Source: an uncultured Bdellovibrionales bacterium (lineage in GTDB: Bacteria > Bdellovibrionota > FAC87 > UBA2466). From it: DNA of 64,000 nucleotides. A model generated the notes under the pieces. The model worked only from the letters and a program-made list of their open reading frames with translations. It was not told the DNA's origin and searched no databases. Where the stretch lies: the NCBI GenBank assembly GCA_937903155.1, contig CALCZU010000132.1, positions 18,043 through 82,042 of the forward strand. The letters run 5' to 3'. The position numbers and the translations under genes are program-made. Shown one piece after another: positions 19,541 through 38,707 of the stretch. The stretch's first letter is position 1; every line of letters begins with the position of its first letter.

Positions 19541-20680
19541 TTAGATATAATTTTTTCTTTTGATTTTCTCAATGATGATTTTTTCGGGCATCGTGGGGTC
19601 GCGAGGATCGACCGTAAAGAAAGCTTGCTGCTCACAACGTCTTTTGTTTTTCAAAAGCCAATGAAGGATTTCGGAGAGTCCTTTATTCTTTTTGTCTTTA
19701 AAAAACGGATCGTTTTTCAGCGCATCCGCCGCTTTTTTAAGCGCTCGCGCCTCACCGACATCGGTTTCTTTCACCGGATAGTCGTTGAGATCATACTTTT
19801 TGATATCTTCAGGCAAAACGCCCAAGAAGCGGACTTCGGGAGCGGAGAAATCTGAGTTTCGAATCAAGCTCGCAGCACTTCCGGCTTTCAGCGTTCTAAA
19901 AATATTTTGCATCGTATAGGCGTCCAGATCCCCGAAGAAGTAAATCGGAACATCTAACTCATCTTGGATGAGCTTACACCAACCTCGAACCGCATTACTG
20001 GGAACCCCTTGGGCACCCATTAAAATGCAGTTGTTTCGTTTGCAAAATCCGTTTGAGACGAACGTATTTGCGGTACCTTCGGATTCGACAACTAAGCAGA
20101 AGTCGATTTTTTTCTTCGCCTTTAATTTCAAACTTTGAGGGCGGTTTTTCGGTTGAAACGGGGTCGTTCCAAGAGAACTTAAATCCACAACCGCTTTTCC
20201 ACCATCGGGAAGCGTTTCTGTGACGACCAGCTGGTTCGAATACGTTTGGCCTCCGCGATCATTGGCAAAACAATTTAATTCTTCACGGTAGCACTCAAGC
20301 ATTTCGCAGATGAAATCGATGACAGAGTCACTCTCGGTCTGATCTAAAAAGTCGAGCGGTTTCAAAGCAGGATTATGCTTCACTTCACCTTTCGCGATGT
20401 AGTAAAGCTCACGCTTCGTATTGACCGCACCCGTTTCGAGGTTTCTTAAAAAAATCTCGAGAAGAAAAATCGCACGCGACATTTTTTGGACCGAGCTGAC
20501 ATTGAGTTCCGTGCGGACCATTTTATCGCCTGGGGTCAGGTATCCGACCTTAGGATTATAATTCGAATTATCGAGAGAACATTTGACGGCTTCCATCACC
20601 GGACGCTTCGCATTTTCGAGATCCGTCAAAAGGCGGCTACAAAGATCTTTTGACATTTCTGGGATGGTTTCGTCTCTCAT
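19541..20680 (-). CDS. top6A: DNA topoisomerase VI subunit A (Spo11/Top6A)
   Basis: 379 aa. The catalytic-tyrosine motif TKRELYYIA sits in a winged-helix region. The Toprim region has VVESEGT and the acidic FFGDLDAYTM DxD motif. Size and order, downstream of top6B, are as in archaeal operons. Confidence 0.8.
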   Translation of the reverse strand: MRDETIPEMSKDLCSRLLTDLENAKRPVMEAVKCSLDNSNYNPKVGYLTPGDKMVRTELNVSSVQKMSRAIFLLEIFLRNLETGAVNTKRELYYIAKGEVKHNPALKPLDFLDQTESDSVIDFICEMLECYREELNCFANDRGGQTYSNQLVVTETLPDGGKAVVDLSSLGTTPFQPKNRPQSLKLKAKKKIDFCLVVESEGTANTFVSNGFCKRNNCILMGAQGVPSNAVRGWCKLIQDELDVPIYFFGDLDAYTMQNIFRTLKAGSAASLIRNSDFSAPEVRFLGVLPEDIKKYDLNDYPVKETDVGEARALKKAADALKNDPFFKDKKNKGLSEILHWLLKNKRRCEQQAFFTVDPRDPTMPEKIIIEKIKRKNYI

Positions 20681-20684
20681 GACT

Positions 20685-22472
20685 CTAGTCTACTTTCTCA
20701 ATTTGTTTCTTTTCAGTTTTCTTCTTCGGAGCCGGTTTCGCCTTTTTTTCTTTGATTTCGACGTCAGGCGTTTCCGCTTCGAGTTCCACCGGAGCTTCTT
20801 CTTTCGTCTCGTCTTCGTCTTTTTTGACGACCTGGAGTTTTCCGGACTTCTTCGCTTTTTCAGCGTGGACTTCGGCTTCTTCAAGCTGCTTTTTTGCGAG
20901 ATTAATATCACGGCCCAAAAGCTTCACTAAACCTTCATTCGCCTTTTTCTTACGTGCCGCCGGCGCTTTGGTAATTCGGCAAAGACAGTCGACCAGAATC
21001 GGACAGAATTGCTCGATATGTCTTAACTTCTCTTCTAAATCGTTAGCCTTCGTTTCTTTACGAATATGCCGCGAAAGTCTTTGTCCGGCTTGAATCAATG
21101 TCCGGCGAATTTCTTCGACAAGCTCATCACTCGCATCGACCGTTTCTTTGGAAGCATTTTTAAATTTAATAAACGGCGAAACAAGACTGAGGGCAATCAC
21201 GTAAGGCCCATTCGGAAGACTATCTTTAGGCTGTTGAAGGCCGTAAGCTCTCCAATTCACAGTCTCAATTGCTTTGACCATCGCACAGGCCGATTTATCA
21301 AACTGTAAAGGGACGCGATTTGCAAAACGCAAAACCTGAACCGGAGGATCATTTCCCTCCGAACCATCGCGGACCAAATTCTTCAATCGCGCAATTGCAA
21401 CTTCAACCGCCACCGGTTTGAAATCGCAAATCGTAGGTTTACGAGTCACGACCGAAAAGAAATCCACTTCGCCAAGACGTCGGACACTTTTCGAAAACGC
21501 TTCTTCACCAATAATCATGACTGAACGCGTACTCGGCGCCATGAGTTCTGTTTTGTGAATCGCACCAAAAACTTCTTTGAATTGTAATTCACTTAACTTA
21601 TCAATCGATTCATCCACATATTTTTTAGGAAGTCCGTTTTTAATAAACTCCTGAATCGTATTATCCGTAATGCGCGAAAAGGCTTTCTTCAGCCAAACCT
21701 TTAAAGTCACTCGCCCAAAGAGATGGGAAAAAGCAATAAACTCTCCCAACTTCATCGTGTGAGGATGAGGCTCCGTCGCCTCGGGAATGTCAGGCCCTTT
21801 ATCGGTAACTCTCAGAATTTTCTGCTTGGGCTGATCGAGAAGTTTGTAAGTCAGATTGAGATGCGGATTTACAAGCGCGGTTCCATTCAAATAGGTAAGA
21901 AGACCGCCTTCTCCCTGCAACTGAATTCGTCCGTCAATTTCAAACTCAACGCTCACGCCATGGGGTCTGTCCCAAGTAATCGATTTTTTATCTTTTAATA
22001 AACCTTTATTGTTTTTAATATCGACTTCGACTCGCGCCGAAACCGCTTGCCGCATGCCCTTCGTCTTCGTGATGACGGTCGCTCCCTTTGCCGAAGTCAA
22101 TTGCGCCCACGTCGTCGCCGCCGAAATCCCAATCCCCTGCTGCCCACGCGAACATCTTCCACGCCCAAATTTAGAACTCGCAAGGTACTCACCAAAAACT
22201 TTTGTCACTTCTTCTGCATCGAGTCCAGGACCATTGTCCGAGATCTTAATCCGAATCAAATCCGTATTTTTTAAAGTCCCTGTCCCAATTTTTTCGATGA
22301 CGACATCAATCTCAGGCAGGATTTCGTGGTCTTCACAAGCATCCAAAGAGTTATCAACCGCCTCTTTAAGCGTTGTCAGCACAGCTTTCGTAGGAGACGA
22401 AAACCCCACTTGCTGAAGATTCTTAGAAAAATATTCCGCAGTACTACTAGATGTAATTTTCTGTTTTGCCAC
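20685..22472 (-). CDS. top6B: DNA topoisomerase VI subunit B (GHKL ATPase, Top6B) with lysine-rich C-terminal tail
   Basis: 595 aa. Bergerat-fold boxes EAVDNSLDA (N), ISDNGPGL (G1) and SRGQQGIG (G2) are present. The transducer block VLRFANRVPLQFDKSACAMVKAIETVNWRAYG aligns with Sulfolobus Top6B. The last ~60 aa are K/E-rich. Confidence 0.85.
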   Translation of the reverse strand: MAKQKITSSSTAEYFSKNLQQVGFSSPTKAVLTTLKEAVDNSLDACEDHEILPEIDVVIEKIGTGTLKNTDLIRIKISDNGPGLDAEEVTKVFGEYLASSKFGRGRCSRGQQGIGISAATTWAQLTSAKGATVITKTKGMRQAVSARVEVDIKNNKGLLKDKKSITWDRPHGVSVEFEIDGRIQLQGEGGLLTYLNGTALVNPHLNLTYKLLDQPKQKILRVTDKGPDIPEATEPHPHTMKLGEFIAFSHLFGRVTLKVWLKKAFSRITDNTIQEFIKNGLPKKYVDESIDKLSELQFKEVFGAIHKTELMAPSTRSVMIIGEEAFSKSVRRLGEVDFFSVVTRKPTICDFKPVAVEVAIARLKNLVRDGSEGNDPPVQVLRFANRVPLQFDKSACAMVKAIETVNWRAYGLQQPKDSLPNGPYVIALSLVSPFIKFKNASKETVDASDELVEEIRRTLIQAGQRLSRHIRKETKANDLEEKLRHIEQFCPILVDCLCRITKAPAARKKKANEGLVKLLGRDINLAKKQLEEAEVHAEKAKKSGKLQVVKKDEDETKEEAPVELEAETPDVEIKEKKAKPAPKKKTEKKQIEKVD

Positions 22473-25062: not shown

Positions 25063-26289
25063 TTATTTAAGCGAAATCACACGCAGCGTGTTTGTTTGAA
25101 GATTGATTTCACCTGTGGGCGACGTCGAATATTTTTCGTGTCGAATTTCGAATGCTTTTACGAGTTGGCCCGAATCGTAAGTCCGCGTCGAAGAAAACTC
25201 ATGTGTGACGCCAGAGTTTTTCACTTTCCCGCGGAGTCGACTAAACCAAACAGGTTTTCCTAAGACTTCGTCTTCGCGATTCTGCAAAAGAACGCACTCG
25301 CTAAAATTCGGTTTGGGTTTAAAGACCGGAACAATCACGCCCGACGAATCGGAAATGACAGGCGCTACGCCGAGTTTCATTTTGTCGTAAGTTAAATATA
25401 AAACCTCTTCGGATCCTTGAGAACTTCCTTCTTCAATTTTTCGAGTGACTTTGAGGGTGATTGTTTTGTCATTTTGATTTTCAAACTCAAATGTCAGATA
25501 AGCGCGTGCAACATTGTCCTGAATCAGAGGTTCTTCAGTCGTCAACTCAAAGACCACTCGATTGCTCTTGGTCCAACTTAAGGGATTCAGATTCAAGACC
25601 CCCGAATTGAGCCCTGGATAAAAATTGGCGTTCGCGCAATCGAGATCCATAAGATTCAATTCTTCCACTTTGCGTTGATACTCTGCTTGATCCATGTAAT
25701 CGGCATGCCGAGAACTCATGAGTCCAACGTAGATGCGAGACAGAATCGAATTTTTTTGTCCTAACTGAGTCGCATCGTAATAAACAATCTCATGCAGAAT
25801 CAATGCGGCTCGACTGTCGTCAGTCAGAAGACTGTTATCCCAAAGATCTTTATTCACGAGATAAATTCGGTCTTCCGGAACGCGCTTTGTTCTCCGCGCA
25901 GCGAGTTGCTCGATGGTGCAACCGGGCTCTAGAGGTACAAAACCGAAATCGTCTGTACTGGGAATAATGACTTTCTCGGTGAAGGTCACGTTGTTGAAAA
26001 AATCATTCGCTTTGATTCGATAGCGACGCGCTCGGACCGGATCGAACCTCTCGATTCGGGCGAGCAGAATTTCGAGCTTTGAATAAATCGACAGTTCTTT
26101 TCCGCCAATCTCGACGTCGAGACTTCGGAATCTATTTTCAAATAAATCCAAAAGTTCAATCGATTTAACCTGCTGAGAAGAGTCTCGACAAACCACGATA
26201 CCGCCACCGCTCCCGCGGTCATTTCCGGCAAAAGTTGAACCTGCGAAAACTCCGAACCAGAATAGAATTCCAATAAATCGACTTGTCAT
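25063..26289 (-). CDS. Hypothetical secreted protein
   Basis: 408 aa with a signal peptide (MTSRFIGILFWFGVFAGSTFA). No motif recognised. It overlaps the upstream gene by 4 bp. Confidence 0.4.
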   Translation of the reverse strand: MTSRFIGILFWFGVFAGSTFAGNDRGSGGGIVVCRDSSQQVKSIELLDLFENRFRSLDVEIGGKELSIYSKLEILLARIERFDPVRARRYRIKANDFFNNVTFTEKVIIPSTDDFGFVPLEPGCTIEQLAARRTKRVPEDRIYLVNKDLWDNSLLTDDSRAALILHEIVYYDATQLGQKNSILSRIYVGLMSSRHADYMDQAEYQRKVEELNLMDLDCANANFYPGLNSGVLNLNPLSWTKSNRVVFELTTEEPLIQDNVARAYLTFEFENQNDKTITLKVTRKIEEGSSQGSEEVLYLTYDKMKLGVAPVISDSSGVIVPVFKPKPNFSECVLLQNREDEVLGKPVWFSRLRGKVKNSGVTHEFSSTRTYDSGQLVKAFEIRHEKYSTSPTGEINLQTNTLRVISLK

Positions 26290-27107
26290 CTTTCGGTCCC
26301 TCTTAAATCAGAGACGGGAATGAGTTGTACATTTAAGTTGTACACTTCGGTCCGTTCTCCAGTTTCTAGAACTCTTGCCAAGTATCTTCGAAAGTTTTGT
26401 ATGAGCTCTTTTGCGATTTGAATCTTTTTAGGATCAATCGCCATCGTGATTGAAGTTATATCAGAATCCTTTACGGAGACTTCGTCAAGCGCCGAGATCG
26501 CCTGTTCTAAGCTTTGTCGATGCGATTCTCTTAGCGCAGCGCAAGGAGTATTACTCGTCGTGGCAACCCCATTTTGTGCTGGACGTAACTTTTTACCTTC
26601 GCTCACAATAAAACCCATTCGGATCAGTCTATCGACGGCTTCTTTCACTTCGCGAACCGTAATCTTAAGTCGAGACGCCATCCATTTCGGATCATTTTTA
26701 AAATCATCGGTTTCGATCAGACTGAGAAGCGCAAAATGATACCAGTCCGCAACGATAGCGAACTGATCGAACGAAATCTGTTTGTAGTCCGAATGGTGCT
26801 TTCCTAAATTTTCTCCTTCTTTAATCACGGTTGCGGAATCTTCTTGCTCGACAATCAAAGAGAGAAACGCTTTTTTCTCTTCTTCGGAAAATCCCAATCT
26901 ATCGGCGATACGGATCCCCATTTTTGTGGTGAGGGTTCGTTTGCGCGCAATGATTTCAGAAAGCGGACCGGCCGGAACTTGCAAATTACGAGCGAATGCG
27001 CGCAGCGAATAGGAATGATTGCGATTACGGCGTGTTTGAAACTCTTTGGTGAGCCACGAGATGGGATCTTTTTCCCGTCGATGATTTTCGTTTTCGTGTT
27101 GGGACAT
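26286..27107 (-). CDS. HTH-containing protein, resembles TIGR02147 paralogous family
   Basis: 273 aa. The N-terminal block HSYSLRAFARNLQVPAGPLSEIIARKR is a helix-turn-helix-like segment. Family recall is from memory and not verified. Confidence 0.4.
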   Translation of the reverse strand: MSQHENENHRREKDPISWLTKEFQTRRNRNHSYSLRAFARNLQVPAGPLSEIIARKRTLTTKMGIRIADRLGFSEEEKKAFLSLIVEQEDSATVIKEGENLGKHHSDYKQISFDQFAIVADWYHFALLSLIETDDFKNDPKWMASRLKITVREVKEAVDRLIRMGFIVSEGKKLRPAQNGVATTSNTPCAALRESHRQSLEQAISALDEVSVKDSDITSITMAIDPKKIQIAKELIQNFRRYLARVLETGERTEVYNLNVQLIPVSDLRGTER

Positions 27108-28038: not shown

Positions 28039-28112
28039 GGGTGTTTAGCTCAGTTGGTTAGAGCACCTCGCTTACACCGAGGGGGTCCACGGTTCGAGTC
28101 CGTGAATACCCA
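28039..28112 (+). tRNA. tRNA-Val (anticodon TAC)
   Basis: Manual cloverleaf: acceptor GGGTGTT/AATACCC, D-arm GCTC..GAGC, anticodon stem CCTCG/CGAGG with loop CTTACAC, T-arm CACGG-TTCGAGT-CCGTG, discriminator A. CCA is not encoded. Confidence 0.9.
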
Positions 28113-29269: not shown

Positions 29270-32200
29270 CTATTTTTTAAACGGAGCTAAGAGAGGTTCG
29301 TAGTCATTGGATTCGCTGAAACGGGTGTCTGGGAGTGCGATTCCTTTTAGGTTTGCGTAGAGTTCGATGACTCGGACGATTTGATTTGCGCTGTGGGGTG
29401 ACTTTGCATCGATTGCGTTTGTGAGAAGTTCTTTAGAGGGAGGAGCGTTGCCGAAAATGAGTTGCATTCGTTCATCCCACTTTGTTTGTTGTTCTGGAGA
29501 AAGGGCGGCTCTCATTCCTGAGGTCACGAGTGCAAAATCATCCTGGGCTTTGAATACGGTTTTGATTTCTTGAAGAAGATTCCTGTATCTTCCGTAAGTT
29601 TCTGGCGTAATCCAATTCTTTCGGAGAAACGCTTTATAAAGGATATCGGCTCTCTTTTCTCCGAGTTTTTTCCCACCGACACCGAGATCAAAACCTTTGA
29701 GCTGAGCGTAGTAGTCGAGCATTTCTATGATCTGAATCGAGGTCGGTTGGTCGGCGACAGAATTTGATTTAAAAATGTCTTTTATCTTGAGATCCCACTG
29801 GTCGCCGACAGAATCATCGAGCGAGTTCCTTAGTTCCGCTAAATAGTTTGAAAAATCATCTGATTTGAAAGTTTTTTGTAACCGCTCTAAAAATGGAATG
29901 TATTCAGGGAATAGATTTCGCTTGATAGGAGACGCTGCCTTCCTCGGAGCTTCTACTACGGGCACCGCAGGGAGGTCTGGTTCTAAATCTGGTTTGAAGG
30001 ACTTTAGGAAAGTCGTAAATTTTTTAGCATCTTTAAAATCCTCTTTCGAAAGCGGGGAACCTCTCAATTGGGAATAAAATTCCATTAGAGTTAGAATGCG
30101 ATTCGCATGATTTGCATTCTGATGAAAAAGAGTCGTTGTGAGTAAAGCGGGTGGCGGCCCGCTGGCAAAAATACGATCAATCTCTTGATCGAGTTTAACG
30201 AGATCTTCTTTTTGAAGATAACTTTTCATGCCTGCAATCACCTTGCTAAACTGATTACTCGCAGTGAAAGTTTTTTGTAGAGTCTCTAAAAAAGGACGGT
30301 ATTCGTGGAAGTTTTCGCTGGTAACGACTTGTTCTACGATCCCAAAAGAGTGAAAAAGCTTGAGGAATGTTTTTGGTTTTTCCAGATCTCCCGCAGTAAC
30401 GGAAAGGCCTTTTAATTTTGCATAAAGAAGGGCCAGCTTTACAAGTTTATTAGCCTTCGGAGTCGACCGATCTCTAACCATTCCTGTGAAGAAACTCTTC
30501 GAGGGTTTCTTTTTTTCAAAAATCTCAAGGACGCCCTCATCCCATTCCTCGTGCGTTGAAAGATCCAGATCCTTTTTAAAGGCCGTAGTTACCTTTAAAA
30601 AATTGTCACCTGGTTCAAACGTTTCTCCTAATTGTTCTAGAAATGGAATATACGCGGAAAAATTTTCAGAATGGACGGGCGTTGAGTCAGCAACTCCATA
30701 CTGATCCAAGAATTCATCCAGCTTATTCGGTTTTCTGAGCTCAGATGGGCTCAGTCGAAGTCCCTTCAATCGTGCGACTTCTGCAAGAAATCTTAAGACT
30801 TTATCGGCATTCGCGTCGGATTTGCTATAGATCGTGGTATTTAGAATAAAATTCGAAGGACCCGAAGGGCCAAAAATTTCTTTTGTTTTTAAATAATAAA
30901 CTATTTGCTCGGAAGGAGAAAGCTGGTCTCTGAAATGGGAAATCACTTTCGAGAAGTCGACTTGCGCTTTCAGATTATCCGATAGTTTTTTGATCAAAGG
31001 CAAAAAGGTATCAAAATTGGATTTTGTGACAATCGCTTCTTTCGACCCCAAAGTTTTTAGGAATTTATTGTACTCTTTTGTTTGATGTAGATTGTCCGGC
31101 GAGACTTTGACCCCGGCAAGCTTTCCGTAAAGCTCGAGGACTTTCAATATCCTGTCTGCATGGTTCAATGACTTCCTCTGGAGTAGAGTCGTGAAAAGGA
31201 CAGGTAGTGGGCCGTTTTCGCCGAAAATTTCTTTAATTCCCTTCTCCCAGTTTTCATGTAGTCCGGGACCAATGTTTTTTTTGAGGGCCTCGAGAAATCT
31301 ACTAAAATCTACGGATGCTTTAAACAGAGTCTGAAGTTTTTTGAAAAACTTTAGATAACCTTCAATATTATCCGGATTCGCATATCCGCCTTCTTTCGAA
31401 GGCGCGTTCCAAAAATCGATCCGCCCTGCCTCACGAATCAATGCGATATAGTCTTCTAGAGCAATCACAGGATGATGATCTTCTTTTTTCCGTTTAGACT
31501 TCCCTGCAGTGCCTTTTCGTTCGATATCGTCCATACGCTTTGCAAGCGCTTCGTGATCCAGAGATTGAGCTAAGTAAATTTCCACATCTCGCTTGCCAGG
31601 CGCGGTTCTGACTACGCGCCCAAATCTCTGAGTGAGCGAGAAAGGATTGGGATCGTCCCGCAGATCGACGAGACACGAGGCTATCGGAAGATCGACGGCT
31701 TCATTCAGTCTATCGACAGAAACTAAAACATGAATTTCACCTTTATTATACCGTTCTAAAATCTCTGTGACTGGAGTGACAACGAGTTGCCCGTCTTTGT
31801 TTTCGACATAGCCTTCATAATCCGAAGTGTAGACAGCGACTTTTCTACCGTGGGGAGTGAGTTGTCTTGAGAGATATTCGGTCAACCTCAGCGCTTCTTT
31901 TTGGGAGTTGACTGAAAACAGACTTGGACGGCTCAAAAGAGAATCGCGAGTTTGCTCGAATAAAGAAGCATAGTGCTGGTCGAGAAGCTCTGCTCTTTGT
32001 CCGCGGTCGACTGGAGTATAAATCGGATCTCCTTCTTTCAGTGCGAAAACCAAAGGTCGCACTTTCTCAAAGCCTACTAAGTCGCCATTTGCAAAGGCCG
32101 CCTCAAGTTGCTTCATCACGTCGCCCGGAGAGCGATCCGCAGCTCCCCGCTTCTCTAACCATGCTTCAGGCGTATCGAGGTAAGTGTAAAACCCTCGGCC

Positions 32201-33346
32201 TCCCGCCATTCTTTGAACACGGCTATCCGGGGTGGCCGTGATCAAAAGGGCCGAAGCTTCGGGATTCTCTTTTAAAGTTTCATCAAAAATTTTTCCGATT
32301 TGTAATGCGCCTGCATGGTGAGCTTCATCGTAGATCCAGTATTTTAAAATGGATCTTAAGTGTTGGACATTTTTGGGATCTGGCAAAAATTCAGGTTCTT
32401 CATTTTCGTTCGTAACCTTTTCTCCTTTAATTCGCGAACGTAATGAGGATGCAGTGGTGACAAGAATCACGGGCTCGTTCCCGCTCTCAACAAGTGCTTC
32501 AAGCTCTTCAAAAGTCTTTGCATCGGCGTTGCGTTTTCCACCGTCTCCCCATTCAACCAGCTTGATTCCGATAGGAGGTTCTCCCTCAATTCCACTTTGA
32601 ATTTTTTTTACCTCTTTTGTCAGTTGGGAGACGGTATTTGTTTGATCGCTTAGGACGATATATAAACCCTTCCCTTTTGTCTTAAGACGGTCTCGTAAAA
32701 GGGCACGAACGATTTCGGATTTTCCCGTGCCCGTTGGGGATACCGCGAGAAAAACCTGGTCCTCTGCATTTTTATCTTTATCAAATTTTTTAAGAAGCGT
32801 TTGTCCGAGGTCAATCACTTCATTTTGAATCTCGCGGTGAACGAGTGCAGGTTCCCCCAAAGCTTTTCGCTCTGCCTGATGAGGTCCATTGGGATCCACG
32901 AGAAAAGGATAGAGTGGATGACCTAAAAATGTATTTCGAATCAGCCCCGTTCGATTAGGGAATTTACTCCAATCAAACTCGTGAGGAATTTCTAACGTTC
33001 TAAGTTTCGCATCGATGTTGACCATGCGAGGAGTAGTAACTCCCTCTACAAATCGAATCTCAACCGCAAATCCCTCTGGCGAAGTACTTCTCAAATGCCC
33101 TTCAGAAGTTCGCTCCCACCTCGGAGTTTTTTTCGATCCCACAATGGCTCTTCCACCTAATTCCGGAAGCAGGTTTTCAAGAAACCGAACTTCATCGGCA
33201 CTCATCGCCAGCCGCTTTTTTTGAAGCGCAAACTCCGCAAAAACTTTCGCACAAGGGGTAGAAAAAAGCGGCTGGCGCGCGTTGCCCACAGAACAGGCAA
33301 AAAGAAGCCCTAAAATGAAAACAAAATTTAAAATGGGGTGAGACAC
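29270..33346 (-). CDS. Large SF2 helicase (ResIII/DEAH-like core) with signal-peptide-like leader and ~6 C-terminal ~125-aa tandem repeats
   Basis: 1358 aa with GTG start at 33346. Walker A is AVSPTGTGKSEIV and the DEAH box is IYDEAHHAG. Motif III ITATP and motif VI QRFGRVVR are also present. The C-terminal half has repeated units matching [FY]IPFLE-x-L-x-TF...FSKV...W...IFG...ANxxL...LYAKLKG. An alternative start is at MSADEVRF, about 46 codons in. Confidence 0.7.
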   Translation of the reverse strand: MSHPILNFVFILGLLFACSVGNARQPLFSTPCAKVFAEFALQKKRLAMSADEVRFLENLLPELGGRAIVGSKKTPRWERTSEGHLRSTSPEGFAVEIRFVEGVTTPRMVNIDAKLRTLEIPHEFDWSKFPNRTGLIRNTFLGHPLYPFLVDPNGPHQAERKALGEPALVHREIQNEVIDLGQTLLKKFDKDKNAEDQVFLAVSPTGTGKSEIVRALLRDRLKTKGKGLYIVLSDQTNTVSQLTKEVKKIQSGIEGEPPIGIKLVEWGDGGKRNADAKTFEELEALVESGNEPVILVTTASSLRSRIKGEKVTNENEEPEFLPDPKNVQHLRSILKYWIYDEAHHAGALQIGKIFDETLKENPEASALLITATPDSRVQRMAGGRGFYTYLDTPEAWLEKRGAADRSPGDVMKQLEAAFANGDLVGFEKVRPLVFALKEGDPIYTPVDRGQRAELLDQHYASLFEQTRDSLLSRPSLFSVNSQKEALRLTEYLSRQLTPHGRKVAVYTSDYEGYVENKDGQLVVTPVTEILERYNKGEIHVLVSVDRLNEAVDLPIASCLVDLRDDPNPFSLTQRFGRVVRTAPGKRDVEIYLAQSLDHEALAKRMDDIERKGTAGKSKRKKEDHHPVIALEDYIALIREAGRIDFWNAPSKEGGYANPDNIEGYLKFFKKLQTLFKASVDFSRFLEALKKNIGPGLHENWEKGIKEIFGENGPLPVLFTTLLQRKSLNHADRILKVLELYGKLAGVKVSPDNLHQTKEYNKFLKTLGSKEAIVTKSNFDTFLPLIKKLSDNLKAQVDFSKVISHFRDQLSPSEQIVYYLKTKEIFGPSGPSNFILNTTIYSKSDANADKVLRFLAEVARLKGLRLSPSELRKPNKLDEFLDQYGVADSTPVHSENFSAYIPFLEQLGETFEPGDNFLKVTTAFKKDLDLSTHEEWDEGVLEIFEKKKPSKSFFTGMVRDRSTPKANKLVKLALLYAKLKGLSVTAGDLEKPKTFLKLFHSFGIVEQVVTSENFHEYRPFLETLQKTFTASNQFSKVIAGMKSYLQKEDLVKLDQEIDRIFASGPPPALLTTTLFHQNANHANRILTLMEFYSQLRGSPLSKEDFKDAKKFTTFLKSFKPDLEPDLPAVPVVEAPRKAASPIKRNLFPEYIPFLERLQKTFKSDDFSNYLAELRNSLDDSVGDQWDLKIKDIFKSNSVADQPTSIQIIEMLDYYAQLKGFDLGVGGKKLGEKRADILYKAFLRKNWITPETYGRYRNLLQEIKTVFKAQDDFALVTSGMRAALSPEQQTKWDERMQLIFGNAPPSKELLTNAIDAKSPHSANQIVRVIELYANLKGIALPDTRFSESNDYEPLLAPFKK

Positions 33347-33511: not shown

Positions 33512-33937
33512 TTACGGTTGGAATGCGTTTTTTCTGGCGGGAAGATTTCTGACGTCGGGAAGGTCTTTGGAAAGAGAAATCGCTTTGGCACTTGCCCATT
33601 GCTTAGGGGCAGGAAGGTTTTTCATCCCCGCATCCATACTCGGAGGGGCCGTGCCCATGACTCCTTGAGGAATTTCAAAACCGGGAGCTGTAGGAAAGTG
33701 CATTCCTAAATTCTGATCGGGACCGGCAATATTTCTTCCTGGAAAGGAGTTCGCTTTAACTACGTGAGGATCCATCGGAGGAGGCAACTCTTTACCGACT
33801 TGGGGAAGAGGAATCTGTGGCAAAGCTGGAGACGAACTAATCTCTCGAATGCTTTTCTTAGAGAAGTGTTTTTTTACTTCAAGCCCCGTGACTACGACGA
33901 GCAAAATCACGACGGTGTATTTGATATTCGCGCTCAT
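33512..33937 (-). CDS. Small membrane-anchored proline-rich protein
   Basis: 141 aa with an N-terminal TM (VVILLVVVTGL) and a Pro-rich C-terminal half. It overlaps the upstream pilin-like gene by 1 bp, which suggests co-translation. Confidence 0.3.
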   Translation of the reverse strand: MSANIKYTVVILLVVVTGLEVKKHFSKKSIREISSSPALPQIPLPQVGKELPPPMDPHVVKANSFPGRNIAGPDQNLGMHFPTAPGFEIPQGVMGTAPPSMDAGMKNLPAPKQWASAKAISLSKDLPDVRNLPARKNAFQP

Positions 33938-35157
33938 TAATAGGTCTTCTTGTGAAACGTGATTTTAGCTTTGACGTAAGGATGCACTAAAAGACTGACT
34001 CGATAGGGGTCCGTGTAAGGCACGTTAATTGGCTTCACCGGGTTCGGGCAGTACTGATGGGTGTAATTGAATACATAAGCCCATTGGTAGGGCTGCAAGA
34101 CCGTCATCTGTCGACCATCGCCGAGGGCAAACCAGTTATAATATGGCCACGCAATTTGGCCCGTTAACCCAGTCCAGGTGTTATTGCTCAGAGAAGGTTG
34201 CTCCAAAAACATATCGGCCGTAAACGTCGTCACGTAATCGTAATACGTTTTGTGCTGCATATTAAATGAGATCGTACAGCCCAATTCTCCACCGCAAATA
34301 TCTTTAATGTCGATGTTCTCCACGCAACCCCAAGTACTTAAGTCCGGCGGGATAATGTCGTAGCTGACAGGGTACTCAGAAGTTTCCGAGAAACACCCCG
34401 CGACTTCTCTTGTTTGTGAATCGGCTAAAAGACCGACAAAGAAATCTTTCGAGTAAACTTTTCGATTCATGAGATCGGATTTTGAGGAAGCTTCCAAATG
34501 CACCTTCGCAACGTACTTATCTAAATTTTGATTGTTGCGAGTGTCTTTTCCCGCGTTAGACAAACTATCGATTTGAAGTCGGTTGATTCGAAGCGTTCCA
34601 CTCGCATATTCCCCTAACGCGGCGACGGTCGAAACTCCTGTCGTCACTACGGTTGAAGACGATTGACCACTGACTGCCGTCGGAGAACGGTTATCCATCG
34701 TGCCTGAACCTTGGCTCGCACCGCCTGAACCGTCTGCGGAAGAAGGCACAGAATCCCCACTCCCCACGGTGCTCGAACGATTTTCTACGGAAAGGGTTGT
34801 ATTTTTAAGAGCGTCTGGAATCACTTCCTGAAGCGTTGTCACAGCCATCGCCCCTGGTAACTGAATCGCGCTGATGGCAAGTGGGAGTTTATTCAATTCG
34901 ACTTTTAAAGGGAGGCCATTGTTCGCCATGCGCAATGTCTGACCGCAGGTCGTAGGATTTGATAAAACGAGCTGCATTCCCATCACTAAATTTTGAAAAT
35001 CTGATTTTGAATCAATTGCAGTTTGTGACTTAAACATCGAACCTAAAAGCTGAGAATGATAAACCCCGACCAGTGCAATGAGCGAAGATGCAAGTAACAC
35101 TTCTACTAACGTAAATCCTTTTTGATTTTTGCGAATCTTCATTTTGATTTTACCCAT
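33937..35157 (-). CDS. Prepilin-type N-terminal cleavage/methylation domain protein (large type IV pilin-like / pseudopilin-like)
   Basis: The N-terminus ...KNQKG|FTLVEVLLASSLIALVGV is the class-III leader peptide motif G-F-T-L-[IV]-E. 406 aa is larger than major pilins. The likely true start is MKIRKNQKG at 35142. Confidence 0.6.
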   Translation of the reverse strand: MGKIKMKIRKNQKGFTLVEVLLASSLIALVGVYHSQLLGSMFKSQTAIDSKSDFQNLVMGMQLVLSNPTTCGQTLRMANNGLPLKVELNKLPLAISAIQLPGAMAVTTLQEVIPDALKNTTLSVENRSSTVGSGDSVPSSADGSGGASQGSGTMDNRSPTAVSGQSSSTVVTTGVSTVAALGEYASGTLRINRLQIDSLSNAGKDTRNNQNLDKYVAKVHLEASSKSDLMNRKVYSKDFFVGLLADSQTREVAGCFSETSEYPVSYDIIPPDLSTWGCVENIDIKDICGGELGCTISFNMQHKTYYDYVTTFTADMFLEQPSLSNNTWTGLTGQIAWPYYNWFALGDGRQMTVLQPYQWAYVFNYTHQYCPNPVKPINVPYTDPYRVSLLVHPYVKAKITFHKKTY

Positions 35158-35326
35158 GTATAGTTATCGGCTGATTCTATAGATTAGCTGATATGAAGAA
35201 GGCTTCTCAACTGTAACGTTTTAGTCATTTTTTGTGCCTAGAATTATGTCCGTTCAGACACAATGTAAAAAAGTCCCTATCTCCATTCGAAGATAGGGAC
35301 TTTAAGAGCTATTATACGGATCCGGA

Positions 35327-37444
35327 TTACCAGCGCGGACGGGGAATCGGTGGTGGTTTAGTCGGTACCGACGGCAAAGAAATGGGCGGCTTCGGCAACG
35401 GTGGCAAGATACTGCCTGGATTCGGAATAGGAATCGACGGAACCCAGGAACGAATGCGCGCTTCCAAGTTCGCGGCCTCTCGCGAAAGTTGATTAAAGAG
35501 ATCTGTTAAACGACTCAAATCTTTCGACAGGTTTCCATAATCGGTGACAAAGTTGTTGATCTGAGGCCCCAACAGCAAGAGTCTATTTGCTAGAACGTCG
35601 ATAGAGTTTTTTAGTCGCGCTTCTTCTGCCCCGAGACTTCCAAGCCGCGTGCGAAGGTTTTGCAAAACCTGACTTGCACCATCGAAAGCGACGGCCGCTT
35701 GATTCGACACGACTTCTGCAGCATCGAGCTTTGCCTTCAGCGAGATAAGCGTTTCTGTGAGTCCTTGCGTCTTCGAACGAATACTTGCAAGGGATGTCTT
35801 CGTTGCTGCCTGGAGCAGATCCATCGCACCGATTCGAAATGAAGAACTCTGATTTTTGTACCAATCATTGAGTGCTGTCGCCGCGTCTTCAAGACGTCCC
35901 CAGCTTTGCTGGTGGAGGATATCTACGGTCACATTGACGGCCATGCGATTGAGATCGAACTCAAACTGAGTCACTGTCGCTTTTCCTTCATTTCCTTGCG
36001 CGAGGTACACAAGCCGTTGTTCTAAAACTTGAGCGGCTCTCGTTCCTTTTAAGTCAATGATGGGATTTCCTTCTTGATAACGGCTCATCATCTCACTCGA
36101 GTTGACTCCGATAGAGGTCATCATCTTTGCGGTGTTGAGTTGTCCCGCGATACTGGCCGCGACAACCGCGTAGTCAAACCCGCCGAGAAGTTTTTGCACG
36201 TTTCTCGATGCATTTCCTAGGAGTCTTTGAGAGGCGATTTTAAAAAGTCTCTCGGTTTGACCTTGAACTTCTGCTCTCGAATCGAAATTTTGAATTCGAT
36301 CCCGGAAGCTTGTCGCACGAGTGCTTCCCAATCCACCTTTCAACCCAAAGGCCAAGTGACTCGACGGGAGCGTCGCACTCATACCAGAAGGAATTTTTAA
36401 ATTGGGCAAGAACATCGTAGGAATATTTGTCATCCAACTGCTTTTGGTTTTGTAAATGCAGTCGACGCCTTCTGCTTGAACAGCGAACTGGACTCCGATA
36501 TCTAAAGGACAAGCTTCTCCTAAGATGGAACTTAAGGCACAAGTTGCCGCATTTTCGAGATCCTGCTGTCCACTTTGGAGGATAAAGGCGACGACATCGT
36601 TGAACTCAAGCAGCAGTTGGTCTTGAGCTTCTCGCAAGGATTGCTCAACACTTTTTCCGGCAGTCGCAATTCCTAAAGCAATGTGGTGGGCGCCTGTTTC
36701 AACACTCGCCCAGTCGACAAAGCGTTCCGAAGCGTAATAGCTGTGGGCAGCGCCGGATTGAGCGTAAAATCGATCGCGTGCAGTTCGGTACTTCGTTTCG
36801 TGTTGTAATTGCTGAAAAGCCGCAGAACTAAAAAGAAACTCGACGGGATTCACTCGTGGGATGGCGAGCGTTCCACTCAACCAGCTCTCAATTTTCTTAG
36901 AGTCGAGCGTGATTCCGTTTCCTAAATTCACTTCGCCGAAGAAAGTTCCTGCTTTGAAATTGTAAGAGAGTTTAGCCTCGGTATTTAGCGAATAGGCGAG
37001 AATTTTTTGGTTCAGGTTAAAATCAAGAAGGGCTTGATACTGTTTTCCATACTCCAGAAGTTGATCCGAAAGAGCGGCTCTCTGTGCGATCAGACTGTTG
37101 ACGGCAGCTTTACTGGCATTCAGCCTTTCTTGGAGAGGGGCAGCGGCCGATTGCGCCTGGGCAACTTGCTGGTTTACCGCAACGACAAGACCCTGAACAT
37201 TATTTAAGTTCGCCGTTTCATTTGCGATTTGTTGATTAATCGAATTGAATGCGGCACGGGCATTCGCAAGGTCCCTATCGACCACGCCGATTCGAGCGCT
37301 CACAGCGTCCATCTCTCTTTTGACTCCATCTCTTCGGCCGGCAACATTGCTTAATTGGTTTTTAAGATCGGTGAGCGGATCTGCAGTCAGGGTCAGTGCA
37401 AATAAAAAAAGTCCTAATAGGACCTTCCAGTTTCTACCATTCAT
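35327..37444 (-). CDS. Secreted coiled-coil protein with proline-rich C-terminus
   Basis: About 706 aa from MNGRNWKVLLGLFLFALTLTA, which is a signal peptide. Long heptad-like stretches rich in A/Q/L/N sit in the N-terminal third. The C-terminus is PIPNPGSILPPLPKPPISLPSVPTKPPPIPRPRW. Confidence 0.45.
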   Translation of the reverse strand: MNGRNWKVLLGLFLFALTLTADPLTDLKNQLSNVAGRRDGVKREMDAVSARIGVVDRDLANARAAFNSINQQIANETANLNNVQGLVVAVNQQVAQAQSAAAPLQERLNASKAAVNSLIAQRAALSDQLLEYGKQYQALLDFNLNQKILAYSLNTEAKLSYNFKAGTFFGEVNLGNGITLDSKKIESWLSGTLAIPRVNPVEFLFSSAAFQQLQHETKYRTARDRFYAQSGAAHSYYASERFVDWASVETGAHHIALGIATAGKSVEQSLREAQDQLLLEFNDVVAFILQSGQQDLENAATCALSSILGEACPLDIGVQFAVQAEGVDCIYKTKSSWMTNIPTMFLPNLKIPSGMSATLPSSHLAFGLKGGLGSTRATSFRDRIQNFDSRAEVQGQTERLFKIASQRLLGNASRNVQKLLGGFDYAVVAASIAGQLNTAKMMTSIGVNSSEMMSRYQEGNPIIDLKGTRAAQVLEQRLVYLAQGNEGKATVTQFEFDLNRMAVNVTVDILHQQSWGRLEDAATALNDWYKNQSSSFRIGAMDLLQAATKTSLASIRSKTQGLTETLISLKAKLDAAEVVSNQAAVAFDGASQVLQNLRTRLGSLGAEEARLKNSIDVLANRLLLLGPQINNFVTDYGNLSKDLSRLTDLFNQLSREAANLEARIRSWVPSIPIPNPGSILPPLPKPPISLPSVPTKPPPIPRPRW

Positions 37445-37653
37445 TTCAGCGTACATCCTAGTTCCTCTCTGGTTTTTTGATTTCACAACTTTTACTAAGA
37501 GCAAATCAGATGCCAGCGCCAAAACCTTTTTTTCGTGCGTAAAAGCGATTTGAAAATGCATTTTGCAAAACCCAAAATTAAAAAATTACTTGAGTGGGGA
37601 CAGATTGGCCCTGAGCAGCATTCATTTGTGTAAGAGGGAATTTCGCAATATGC

Positions 37654-37682
37654 TTAACTCTGTTAAATATAAACAGAGTTAA
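37654..37682. promoter_or_regulatory. Perfect 11-bp inverted repeat TTAACTCTGTT-N7-AACAGAGTTAA, candidate MarR operator
   Basis: Located 32 bp upstream of the MarR-family gene start at 37715, in the divergent intergenic region. MarR dimers typically bind such palindromes. Confidence 0.4.
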
Positions 37683-37714: not shown

Positions 37715-38194
37715 ATGAAGCCGCACCCCACTTTATCTAAACCCTCCGATGCCCAGCTCGCAGAACTGATTCTGGACGTGGTCCCCGGACAAATGCGCCT
37801 GCTCCGAGCAAAAATGCGAGCAAATGCCGAAGGCGAATTCACTGTTCCCCAGCTCAGAGTCATGGCTCATGTCTATAAGGGGGCGGCGACGGCGAACGAA
37901 CTGGCAAGCCTTCAGGGAGTCAGCTTACCCGCGATTTCAAAACTCGTCGATACACTGGTCACAAAGCATCTACTTGTCCGCGAATATAAAGAAGGAAATC
38001 GCAAGCAGGTCTTTCTTTCGCTCAGTAAAAAAGGTGAGAAACGTTTTCTAGAGATCAGAAAGCGCACTGAAATCGAACTTGCAGAATCGTATGCCTCCCT
38101 TTCGTCAGAACAAAGAGGAAGCATTTGTGAAGGATTAAAAGCACTTAAAGATTTTGAGTCACAAACTTTTTCCAATCAAAAGCGGGGTAATTAA
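37715..38194 (+). CDS. MarR family transcriptional regulator
   Basis: 159 aa. The winged-helix block FTVPQLRVMAHVYKGAATANELASLQGVSLPAISKLVDTLVTKHLLVREYKEGNRKQVFLSLSKKGEKRF is a canonical MarR fold. Confidence 0.8.
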   Translation: MKPHPTLSKPSDAQLAELILDVVPGQMRLLRAKMRANAEGEFTVPQLRVMAHVYKGAATANELASLQGVSLPAISKLVDTLVTKHLLVREYKEGNRKQVFLSLSKKGEKRFLEIRKRTEIELAESYASLSSEQRGSICEGLKALKDFESQTFSNQKRGN

Positions 38195-38196
38195 AA

Positions 38197-38707
38197 ATGG
38201 TTCTTTCGGATCTTTCTATTCGTCGTCCCGTCTTTGCTTGGATGCTCATGCTGGGACTGATCGCTTTCGGCGGCTTATCCTTTCTCCGCCTAGGCGTGAG
38301 CCAGCTCCCCGACGTCGATTTTCCAGTGATTTCCGTTTCTGTCCATCTCGAAGGCGCACCGCCCGAAGTGATGGAGCAAGATGTAGTGGACGTTCTCGAA
38401 GATAAACTCATGAGTATTGAAGGCGTTCGGGCGGTGAGTTCTTCTTCCAAAAGTAGCTTTGCAACCATCAAAGTGGAATTCTATTTAAGTCGCAAAATCG
38501 ATATCGCACTTCAGGACGTTCAGGCCAAAACTGACGGGAGAATCACTTAACATCTACAGTATGATCGGTCTGATTCTTCTCATGGGTATTGCGAAGAAAA
38601 ATTCCATTCTTCTTGTCGACTTCACAAATCAAACTCGAGAGTCTGAAGGAAAAAACATCATCGATGCACTCTTGCATGCCTGCCTTATCCGGCTTCAGCC
38701 GATTTGA
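38197..38707 (+). pseudogene. Remnant of an RND (AcrB/HAE1-type) efflux transporter gene with a large internal deletion
   Basis: The first 117 codons encode a typical RND N-terminus (MVLSDLSIRRPVFAWMLMLGLIAFG...VISVSVHLEGAPPEVMEQDVV) and then hit a stop. From 38552, in a different frame, about 52 codons encode the extreme RND C-terminus (IYSMIGLILLMGIAKKNSILLVDFTNQTRESEGKNIIDALLHACLIRLQPI*). Roughly 900 codons in between are missing. Confidence 0.6.

Follow-up and report, generated by a model that had tools for sequence, protein, structure and literature searches.

The window, a 64-kb stretch of DNA from an uncultured Bdellovibrionales bacterium, contains three adjacent genes of the same orientation, one of which encodes an unusually large protein with a prepilin-like N-terminus. 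The locus raises the question of whether these genes make up a single surface-fibre operon, as the original prediction had it, and of what the large protein is. On balance, our analysis favours two separate transcription units, namely, unit A, consisting of the coiled-coil protein gene, and unit B, consisting of the genes for the 406-aa and 141-aa proteins, with the 406-aa product being a modular type IV pilin or pseudopilin, the C-terminal domain of which (hereafter, C-domain) is probably a ligand-binding head.

Gene organization of the locus

The three minus-strand open reading frames (ORFs) span positions 35327..37561 (744 aa), 33937..35157 (406 aa) and 33512..33937 (141 aa). All three resemble bona fide genes of the window in codon usage, scoring between +0.18 and +0.21 per codon in frame 0 and between -0.2 and -0.3 in the alternative frames. 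For the first gene, the ATG at 37456 is the favoured start, given the alignment of homologues and the Shine-Dalgarno-like sequence GAGAGGAA, which yields a 709-aa product. The features of the locus are as follows.

37715..38194, plus strand: MarR-family gene (Pfam MarR match)
37654..37682, unstranded: perfect palindrome TTAACTCTGTT-N7-AACAGAGTTAA, a candidate operator located between the divergently oriented coiled-coil and MarR-family genes
35327..37456, minus strand: gene for a secreted coiled-coil protein, 709 aa (ORF; homologues P0003-P0005; alignment A5)
35270..35303, minus strand: intrinsic terminator 3' of the coiled-coil gene, with a perfect 15-bp stem, a 4-nt loop and U6
33937..35157, minus strand: gene for a modular prepilin-type protein, 406 aa (ORF, N_methyl, TIGR02532, coding potential, AF2 model)
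33512..33937, minus strand: gene for a 141-aa protein (ORF, coding potential), the ATG of which shares 1 nt with the stop codon of the pilin gene

The coiled-coil gene is separated from the 406-aa gene by 169 bp, and the terminator located in this gap (35303..35270) folds with -23.6 kcal/mol (z = -4.15; 0 of 200 shuffles fold equally well). The genes for the 406-aa and 141-aa proteins share a single base, 33937 (TAATG), and coupling is limited to these two genes. Thus, the three genes are indeed adjacent and co-directional, with a 1-bp overlap of the last two, but they do not form a tightly packed operon, because the terminator comes between the coiled-coil and pilin genes and their linkage is not conserved in relatives. 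A sigma-54 promoter 5' of the pilin gene, judged by eye, was rejected because the -12 GC element is missing. Rfam and tRNA scans detected no RNA gene within the locus, and a reading of the neighbourhood as a defence system was dropped, the PADLOC matches being merely to generic helicase and coiled-coil models.

The coiled-coil protein and its putative operator

The 709-aa protein begins with a signal peptide; two coiled coils flank a conserved central domain, in which three cysteines are invariant in the alignment of homologues (A5), and a Pro-rich tail with a final Trp follows. The description of this product as a secreted coiled-coil protein with a Pro-rich tail is borne out by its hydrophobic N-terminus, the flanking coiled-coil-type segments and the 16 prolines within the last 46 residues. 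Searches of Pfam, NCBIfam and PADLOC returned only generic or weak coiled-coil matches, and no relative was found in the PDB. The homologues P0003-P0005 (36-49% identity) are encoded on three other contigs (L002-L004), where their neighbours are unrelated and include no pilin gene. The coiled-coil protein represents an independent small family.

The palindrome upstream of this gene occurs once in the window, with 0 occurrences expected by chance. Unit A would be a stand-alone gene for the secreted coiled-coil protein, with a strong intrinsic terminator at its end and possibly with the divergently encoded MarR-type regulator controlling it through the palindromic operator.

The 141-aa gene

The 141-aa protein, originally described as a single-pass membrane protein with a Pro-rich ectodomain, indeed contains one N-terminal hydrophobic stretch followed by a low-complexity, Pro-rich remainder (14% Pro overall). 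The outward orientation of that remainder is a different matter: a Lys cluster directly follows the hydrophobic segment, so that, under the positive-inside rule, a cytoplasmic C-terminus is equally allowed. This protein has no family match in Pfam, NCBIfam or PADLOC, and its database copies are only identical sequences from the same organism. The gene is a lineage-specific orphan translationally coupled to the pilin gene.

Modular architecture of the 406-aa protein

Type IV pilins and pseudopilins are typified by a short basic leader, a Gly and about 20 hydrophobic residues, usually with Glu5, and the pilin fold consists of an extended α1 helix of about 50 residues packed against an antiparallel β-sheet. 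The 406-aa protein comprises the following segments.

35116..35157, minus strand: leader peptide, residues 1-14 (MGKIKMKIRKNQKG), with Gly preceding the predicted cleavage site G14/F15 (sequence)
34387..35115, minus strand: pilin module, residues 15-257, with the α1 helix at 17-66, a short helix at 68-74 and β-strands at 176-256
34639..34848, minus strand: disordered insert rich in Ser, Gly and Thr, residues ~104-173, which separates α1 from the β-sheet within the pilin module
33940..34386, minus strand: β-rich four-Cys domain of ~150 aa, residues 258-406, at the C-terminus

The leader MGKIKMKIRKNQKG is followed by the predicted mature N-terminus FTLVEVLLASSLIALVGVY, with Glu at mature position +5. 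The class III leader proposed originally (KNQKG/FTLVEVLL) is present, with scores above the cut-offs of both Pfam N_methyl PF07963 (27.0 bits against 21.2) and TIGR02532 (21.1 bits against 16.3). The concern that a mis-called start had placed the motif inside a longer protein is dispelled by an in-frame stop 15 codons upstream of the leader Gly. The database copy of the protein begins at the second ATG (35142) and is 401 aa long. By these sequence features, the protein has the class III signal peptide of the type IV pilin/pseudopilin superfamily.

An AF2 model built from an alignment of 61 sequences (mean pLDDT 81), which superseded a single-sequence AlphaFold model (pLDDT 33), contains the 50-residue α1 helix and the β-sheet, so that the predicted structure has the pilin fold sought in the original proposal. 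PDB matches of the A2 profile are pilins only. Cys71 and Cys255 are invariant among 24 pilin-type relatives and, therefore, presumably form a disulfide; several of these relatives bear other C-terminal modules on the same pilin module. In the model, pLDDT falls below 50 at residues 104-114 and 120-173, and similar low-complexity inserts are present in the relatives P0013, P0063, P0028 and P0066. GT-C genes neighbour those of relatives, which hints at possible O-glycosylation of the Ser/Gly-rich insert. The 406-aa protein is truly type IV pilin-like and is built of three pieces, namely, a pilin module, a disordered insert and a C-terminal domain.

The C-terminal domain family

The C-domain is confidently modelled (pLDDT >90 for residues 264-403). 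It includes four conserved cysteines (Cys278, Cys288, Cys294 and Cys370) and an invariant Glu319 (LEQP), within the motif W-x-C ... C-G-x-x-x-G-C ... MQH ... EQP-LS-NN ... NY-H-YCP ... PY ... HP; an Asp, a Ser and a Gln-His pair are conserved as well (alignment A1). No sequence match to the C-domain was detected in Pfam, NCBIfam, PHROG or PDB, and N_methyl is the sole Pfam match of the whole protein at E <= 1. A fold search produced no convincing match, the weak neighbours being β-sandwich lectins and fibre proteins.

A word-indexed homology search with the 406-aa query retrieved only the protein itself, a domain-profile query retrieved 13 short 'hypothetical' proteins, and profile-based locus scans returned no relatives; the family count, accordingly, rests on an exhaustive HMMER search. 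This search delineated 79 cluster representatives (~80 clusters at 50% identity), with annotated members from Bacteriovoracia and Candidatus Gracilibacteria. A prepilin leader is present in 15 of the 79 and a signal peptide or transmembrane N-terminus in 40; collagen runs occur in eight and GNVGIG fibre repeats in 10. The domain is C-terminal in 68 representatives and forms the extreme C-terminus in all 20 metagenome loci. Its partner domains are Collagen, TSP3_bac, Dockerin_1, Golvesin_C and HpiC1-like. The C-domain is an undescribed, cysteine-stapled domain family. Because in other proteins it almost always ends collagen-like, fibre-repeat, dockerin-containing or membrane-anchored stalks, a tip or head role is suggested, and in the 406-aa protein the C-domain most likely serves as the head with which a type IV filament binds a ligand. 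Modular pilins as defined by Raynaud et al. (2021) combine a pilin module with an extra C-terminal domain that also exists outside pilus biology; given the occurrence of the C-domain on non-pilin proteins too, the 406-aa protein, as judged from sequence, belongs with them.

Relatives' loci and filament machinery

Neither coiled-coil nor 141-aa homologues were found at the eight examined loci of pilin-type relatives, and a search for a hidden partner common to the neighbours of the pilin relatives found none. Genes for a type IV filament machine, which comprises an assembly ATPase, a platform and a secretin, are missing from the window and from the same eight loci; the window contains no gene for a prepilin peptidase (PilD/GspO), the enzyme that cleaves and N-methylates pilins, and there are no T2SS genes near the 406-aa gene. 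A scan of genome contigs with the 406-aa protein gave no match, and one with the citrate synthase encoded in the window gave broad matches of 63-74% identity spread over many phyla. Pilin genes often lie scattered, away from the machinery genes, so the lack of machinery nearby is not decisive. The premise that the organism is a predator draws weak backing from the closest full-length relative (26% identity), which is annotated from a Bacteriovoracia metagenome-assembled genome.

Comparison with known systems

Close parallels are the modular pilins of Streptococcus sanguinis, PilB (pilin and vWA) and PilC (pilin and lectin) (Raynaud et al. 2021, PMC8179133), in which, as in the 406-aa protein, the extra module is presumed to be displayed on the filament for adhesion. 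CofB, a large type IVb minor pilin of ETEC in which extra β-rich domains follow the pilin module, is proposed to form a tip trimer (PMC8179133); similarly, the C-domain in its other contexts comes after collagen and fibre repeats that form trimers. However, the 406-aa protein matches CofB neither in sequence nor in fold, and the leader of the 406-aa protein is of the short T4a/T2SS type rather than type IVb.

Comparison with PilY1, PilX, FimU and GspK, as suggested originally, yielded no family signature in Pfam or NCBIfam. The curated pseudopilin models, GspI/XcpV and GspK among them, all score far below their cut-offs; furthermore, the 406-aa protein has Glu5, which GspK lacks, and a disordered insert where GspK has an α-domain in the β-sheet. 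The 406-aa protein is not a GspK-type tip pseudopilin. It shares with the tip adhesin PilY1/PilC the presumed role of a large adhesin shown on type IV pili, but PilY1 is a non-pilin defined by a C-terminal β-propeller, and none was detected in the 406-aa protein (Pfam, E <= 1).

Bdellovibrio MAT (mosaic adhesive trimer) fibres have variable β-rich, sometimes disulfide-containing C-terminal tip domains of previously unseen folds that recognize prey surfaces (Caulton et al. 2024, PMC10769870). The concept is shared, and some members of the C-domain family have phage-fibre-like GNVGIG repeats. Nevertheless, the 406-aa protein has a pilin module where MAT proteins have a β-helix stalk and, at the N-terminus, a conserved β-rich domain of ~130 aa; it has no S74 domain, and the solved MAT tip domains are not among the fold matches of the C-domain.

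Alternative explanations

That the three genes are one co-transcribed adhesin module, with the coiled-coil and small Pro-rich proteins as dedicated partners of the pilin, appears improbable. Their adjacency on one strand, the 1-nt overlap of the last two and the failure to detect a consensus promoter in the 169-bp gap agree with such a module, as does the gene for a small anchor-plus-Pro-rich protein 3 nt downstream of that for the relative P0009. But the likeness of this small protein to the 141-aa protein is one of type (BLASTP E = 0.05, not significant), so that it was rejected as a homologue, and P0010 has no such neighbour; together with the terminator behind the coiled-coil gene, the unrelated neighbours of its homologues and the missing partners at the relatives' loci, this speaks against the three-protein fibre module of the original prediction. 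What stands of that prediction is the unusually large pilin-like protein, possibly a pilus-borne adhesin, with its class III signal peptide, predicted α1 helix and β-sheet, and a C-terminal module that tips stalks elsewhere.

The prepilin leader might instead serve export and anchoring or release only, the product being an unpolymerised surface, secreted or pseudopilus-associated protein with an extracellular C-domain. This would fit the isolated position of the gene, as neither machinery nor further pilins are encoded close by, be it in the window or at the relatives' loci, and the presence of the same domain on ordinary signal-peptide or membrane-anchored proteins. We nonetheless consider this unlikely, because a full-length α1 helix with Glu5, a pilin-like β-sheet module and invariant cysteines, kept across 24 relatives, exceed the needs of a mere export signal, and scattered pilin genes are common. 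There is also little probability that the C-domain has an enzymatic activity, such as the modification of glycans or peptidoglycan, and is delivered on the filament. The conserved polar residues of alignment A1 are compatible with catalysis, and modular pilins with peptidase modules have been reported (PMC8179133), but Pfam, NCBIfam, PHROGs and PADLOC contained no matching enzyme family, none of the weak fold neighbours is an enzyme core, and a seat at the end of collagen- or fibre-like stalks would be typical of receptor-binding heads.

Under the preferred reading, a modular pilin with a binding head, the prepilin would insert into the inner membrane via its hydrophobic α1N, and a prepilin peptidase encoded elsewhere would cut the 9-14-residue leader after Gly14. 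The pilin module, with α1, the β-sheet and the presumed Cys71-Cys255 disulfide, would then join a type IV filament as a low-abundance subunit; other bulky modular pilins suggest by analogy that its place is most likely the tip or close to it. The four-Cys β-rich domain, held away from the filament body, would bind a ligand, which is probably a glycan or a protein on a surface. A more far-reaching version is possible, if rather doubtful: the C-domain could be a new fold family of swappable recognition heads in predatory or epibiotic bacteria, carried on pilins and on collagen-like and phage-fibre-like stalks, with the 406-aa protein as a pilus-borne prey- or host-recognition subunit and the Cys71...Cys255 module as a scaffold for different heads.

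Implications

The operon call is corrected in that the coiled-coil protein stands apart from the pilin unit. Modular pilins account for diverse functions gained by simple filaments, and, according to a prediction by those who defined the group, domain databases still fail to recognize many of the extra pilin modules (Raynaud et al. 2021, PMC8179133). The 406-aa locus is a concrete case, with a confidently modelled, disulfide-stapled domain of ~150 aa that has no database signature or convincing structural neighbour and belongs to a family reused on pilins and on collagen- and fibre-like stalks. If this domain does serve as a binding head, it becomes a candidate for determining which surfaces or prey are recognized, and a new Pfam-type entry for it would help to annotate extracellular proteins now labelled 'hypothetical'.

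Gene organization of the locus

The features of the locus are as follows:

33512..33937, minus strand: gene 3, ORF of the 141-aa Pro-rich protein
33937..35157, minus strand: gene 2, ORF of the 406-aa prepilin-type protein
35303..35270, minus strand: intrinsic terminator between genes 1 and 2 (perfect 15-bp stem, 4-nt loop, then UUUUUU)
35327..37561, minus strand: gene 1, ORF of the coiled-coil protein, 744 codons
37654-37682: perfect palindrome TTAACTCTGTT-N7-AACAGAGTTAA, 11-bp arms
37715-38194, plus strand: MarR-family gene, divergent from the coiled-coil gene
38197-38550, plus strand: 117-aa ORF right after the MarR gene

For all three minus-strand ORFs, the codon-usage log-likelihood per codon is +0.18 to +0.21 in frame 0, compared with approximately -0.2 to -0.3 when read out of frame. 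The in-frame scores resemble those of the bona fide genes in the window; by this measure, the 141-aa ORF, although an orphan, also appears to be protein-coding. Translation of gene 1 likely starts at the ATG at 37456, which would yield a 709-aa protein: GAGAGGAA precedes this codon, and three homologs of the coiled-coil protein align from the same Met. The original prediction described three tightly packed genes. The ORFs and the one-base overlap between genes 2 and 3 (TAATG, where the stop of the former and the ATG of the latter have one base in common) were borne out, whereas genes 1 and 2 are separated by a 169-bp gap that contains the terminator. The terminator hairpin is highly stable (-23.6 kcal/mol, z = -4.15; 0 of 200 shuffles fold equally well), and no comparable structure was found 3' of the 141-aa gene. 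The locus consists of two units, namely, the coiled-coil gene and the pair formed by the pilin gene and the small gene.

The coiled-coil protein and the MarR region

The coiled-coil protein has four detectable relatives, three of which (database proteins P0003-P0005) are 36-49% identical to it; in the loci of these three, the neighbors are unrelated and there is no pilin gene. In the alignment, a signal peptide is followed by a first coiled coil, a central region (~150-540) and a second coiled coil. The central region is strongly conserved, with three invariant cysteines and motifs including SSH-x-x-FGL, GNPI-x-DL and LAQGNE. A short Pro-rich tail of the W/F-[VI]-P type with an aromatic last residue is common to the coiled-coil protein and the full-length P0003 and P0004; P0005 diverges at the tail and ends earlier. 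Family searches with the coiled-coil protein yielded only generic coiled-coil or SMC-type matches, and a PDB search identified no relative.

The palindrome occurs only once in the window, within the intergenic region from which the MarR and coiled-coil genes diverge, and is a plausible candidate for the MarR operator; if so, the coiled-coil gene would be under MarR control. The 117-aa ORF aligns (E = 1e-31) with positions 2-109 of the AcrB/ACR_tran model, which has 1021 positions, and is what is left of a truncated RND efflux pump gene; the original MarR-pump pair thus appears decayed.

The pilin module of the 406-aa protein

The N-terminus of the 406-aa protein, MGKIKMKIRKNQKG/FTLVEVLLASSLIALVGVY (the slash marks the leader boundary), has Glu at mature position 5 and scores above the cut-offs of both Pfam N_methyl (27.0 bits against 21.2, residues 9-31) and TIGR02532 (21.1 bits against 16.3). 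The reading frame is closed by a stop 15 codons before the leader Gly; therefore, the prepilin motif cannot be a TM helix within a longer protein whose start was mis-called. No other prepilin motif of this type occurs across the 64-kb window.

AlphaFold prediction from the single sequence gave a pLDDT of 33; with a 61-row MSA, the mean pLDDT was 81. The model contains the helix continuation expected of a pilin fold (α1, residues 17-66), a short helix (68-74), a disordered Ser/Gly-rich insert (104-114 and 120-173, pLDDT < 50), β-strands at 176-256, and a C-terminal β-rich domain (264-403, pLDDT mostly > 90). Fold searches with the full-length model gave weak results: there was nothing below E = 0.1 in Foldseek against PDB and no convincing match in BFVD.

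A word-indexed homology search with the 406-aa protein matched only the query itself. An exhaustive HMMER search retrieved 103 cluster representatives in three groups: full-length matches (for example, P0013 and P0063); matches to residues ~5-110 only, that is, pilins with other C-termini; and ~80 matches to residues ~255-403 only. In the alignment of 24 pilin-type relatives, two cysteines are invariant, namely, Cys71 just past α1 and Cys255 where the pilin module (residues 15-257) ends; past Cys255, these proteins bear either the same C-terminal domain or quite different sequences. The PDB matches of this pilin profile are exclusively type IV pilins and pseudopilins, over α1, including geopilin PilA-N, PilA, TcpA, MshA, PAK pilin and GspG. 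The identification of the 406-aa protein as a pilin-type protein is thus upheld by the leader, the upstream stop, and the modeled α1 and β-strands: its class III signal peptide is genuine, it contains a pilin-like module, and it is probably processed by a prepilin peptidase.

The C-terminal four-Cys domain family

The C-terminal ~150 aa (residues 258-406; hereinafter C-domain) define a family with the consensus W-x-C ... D-x-CGDxDGC-x-I-R ... MQH ... D-x-V-R ... IYMEQP-x-LS-x-N ... G-x-YGWT ... PW-x-W ... NY-x-H-x-YCPG ... PY-x-F-x-F-x-x-HP ... IYD. In an alignment of 39 sequences, Cys43, Gly48, Cys49 and Glu74 (domain numbering) are invariant, and conservation is 90% or higher for Cys33, Asp62, Ser79, Gly88 and Cys125; the full-length positions are 278, 288, 294 and 370 for the cysteines and 319 for the Glu. 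The CGDxDGC loop of the window protein (34276-34296, residues 288-294) reads CGGELGC, with both Asp absent, and several of the pilin-type proteins closest to it likewise have a degenerate loop; the window protein may thus have an altered version of a site that functions elsewhere in the family. The disulfide-closed CGDxDGC loop of the family resembles DxDG calcium-binding loops.

No Pfam or NCBIfam model matches the C-domain in any of the 39 members, no PHROG covers it (PHROG matches are confined to upstream collagen/fiber repeats), and a PDB sequence search with the C-domain profile gave no match. Among 79 cluster representatives, 15 have a prepilin leader, 40 a signal peptide or TM N-terminus, 8 collagen Gly-X-Y runs, and 10 GNVGIG fiber-type repeats; in 68, the domain is the extreme C-terminus. 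Irrespective of the stalk, 0-6 residues follow the C-domain in 20 metagenome loci. Long members contain additional domains (Collagen, TSP3_bac, Dockerin_1, Golvesin_C or HpiC1-like). Source labels are sparse: P0013 is annotated as coming from a Bacteriovoracia bacterium MAG and a P0029-like dockerin protein from Candidatus Gracilibacteria, and the remaining labeled members carry only the names 'hypothetical' or 'prepilin-type ... domain-containing protein'. Here we show that the C-domain is a confidently folded, database-invisible module that is re-used at the terminus of diverse extracellular stalks.

Genomic context of the pilin gene and its relatives

Within the 64-kb window, no pilus or T2SS machinery, prepilin peptidase or second pilin was found; the genes nearby encode the MarR regulator, the truncated RND pump, a HAD hydrolase, MacB/FtsX ABC transporters and a 1358-aa SF2 helicase. 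The genomic setting changes from one pilin-type relative to the next:

P0007 (locus L005, 1-1017): a GT87 glycosyltransferase gene overlaps the pilin start
P0013 (L006, 12531-16027): between a gene of no assigned family and Phosphodiest, GT22 (Glyco_transf_22) and DUF2079 genes; a further pilin and an FG-GAP protein at a distance of 8 kb
P0008: genes without assigned family on both sides
P0028 and P0054: tandem paralogs
P0009: among purine-biosynthesis genes; 3 nt later, a 165-aa lipoprotein-like Pro-rich protein (L091, 11797-12294)
P0010: arginine decarboxylase next downstream
P0049: solitary

None of these loci encodes a homolog of the coiled-coil or 141-aa protein. Together with the terminator between genes 1 and 2, this speaks against the proposed three-gene surface module. 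The small protein beside P0009 is like the 141-aa protein in type only (BLASTP E = 0.05); it may be a partner that arose by convergence or evolves fast, or the likeness may be coincidental. The C-domain of P0009 is the closest to that of the window protein.

The P0007 and P0013 pilin genes adjoin genes for GT-C-type membrane glycosyltransferases; none is adjacent to the window's pilin gene. These neighbors, along with the Ser/Thr/Gly-rich inserts in both pilins, hint at pilin O-glycosylation.

Several other features of the window were observed. A tRNA-Val(TAC) gene (28039-28112, plus strand) is located ~5 kb from the pilin locus; between the two, neither an integrase nor a composition shift was seen, so there is no evidence of a genomic island. 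The SF2 helicase gene (ResIII/DEAD/Helicase_C; 29270-33346, minus strand) lies directly downstream of the 141-aa gene. Its start may be mis-called: the N-terminus as called resembles a lipoprotein signal (…LLFAC), an unusual feature in a helicase. The C-terminal half contains, by eye, about six repeats of ~110 aa, and PADLOC gave only weak PbeA-type matches, to the helicase C-terminal motif. Adjacent genes (19541-22472, minus strand) encode subunits A (Spo11/Toprim) and B (transducer/HATPase) of topoisomerase VI, an archaeal-type enzyme uncommon in bacteria. A DUF4423 protein gene (E = 9e-48; 26286-27107, minus strand) adjoins an unannotated 408-aa gene.

The 406-aa protein as a modular pilin

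In modular pilins, a pilin serves as the carrier that displays an added functional module; more than 1,200 such proteins with 264 architectures have been found, and many more modules without a database signature have been predicted (PMC8179133; Raynaud et al. 2021). We place the 406-aa protein among the modular pilins, with a module that has no earlier description. Following this established paradigm, we infer that type IV filaments incorporate the protein as a minor subunit, probably close to the tip, and that its C-domain would bind a ligand. In Bdellovibrio, the novel β-sandwich fiber-tip domains of the MAT proteins serve prey recognition (PMC10769870; Caulton et al. 2024); the analogy is functional only, as no MAT feature was found in the 406-aa protein. 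The most useful product of this analysis is a new family of extracellular four-Cys 'head' domains, together with a carrier pilin module with swappable heads.
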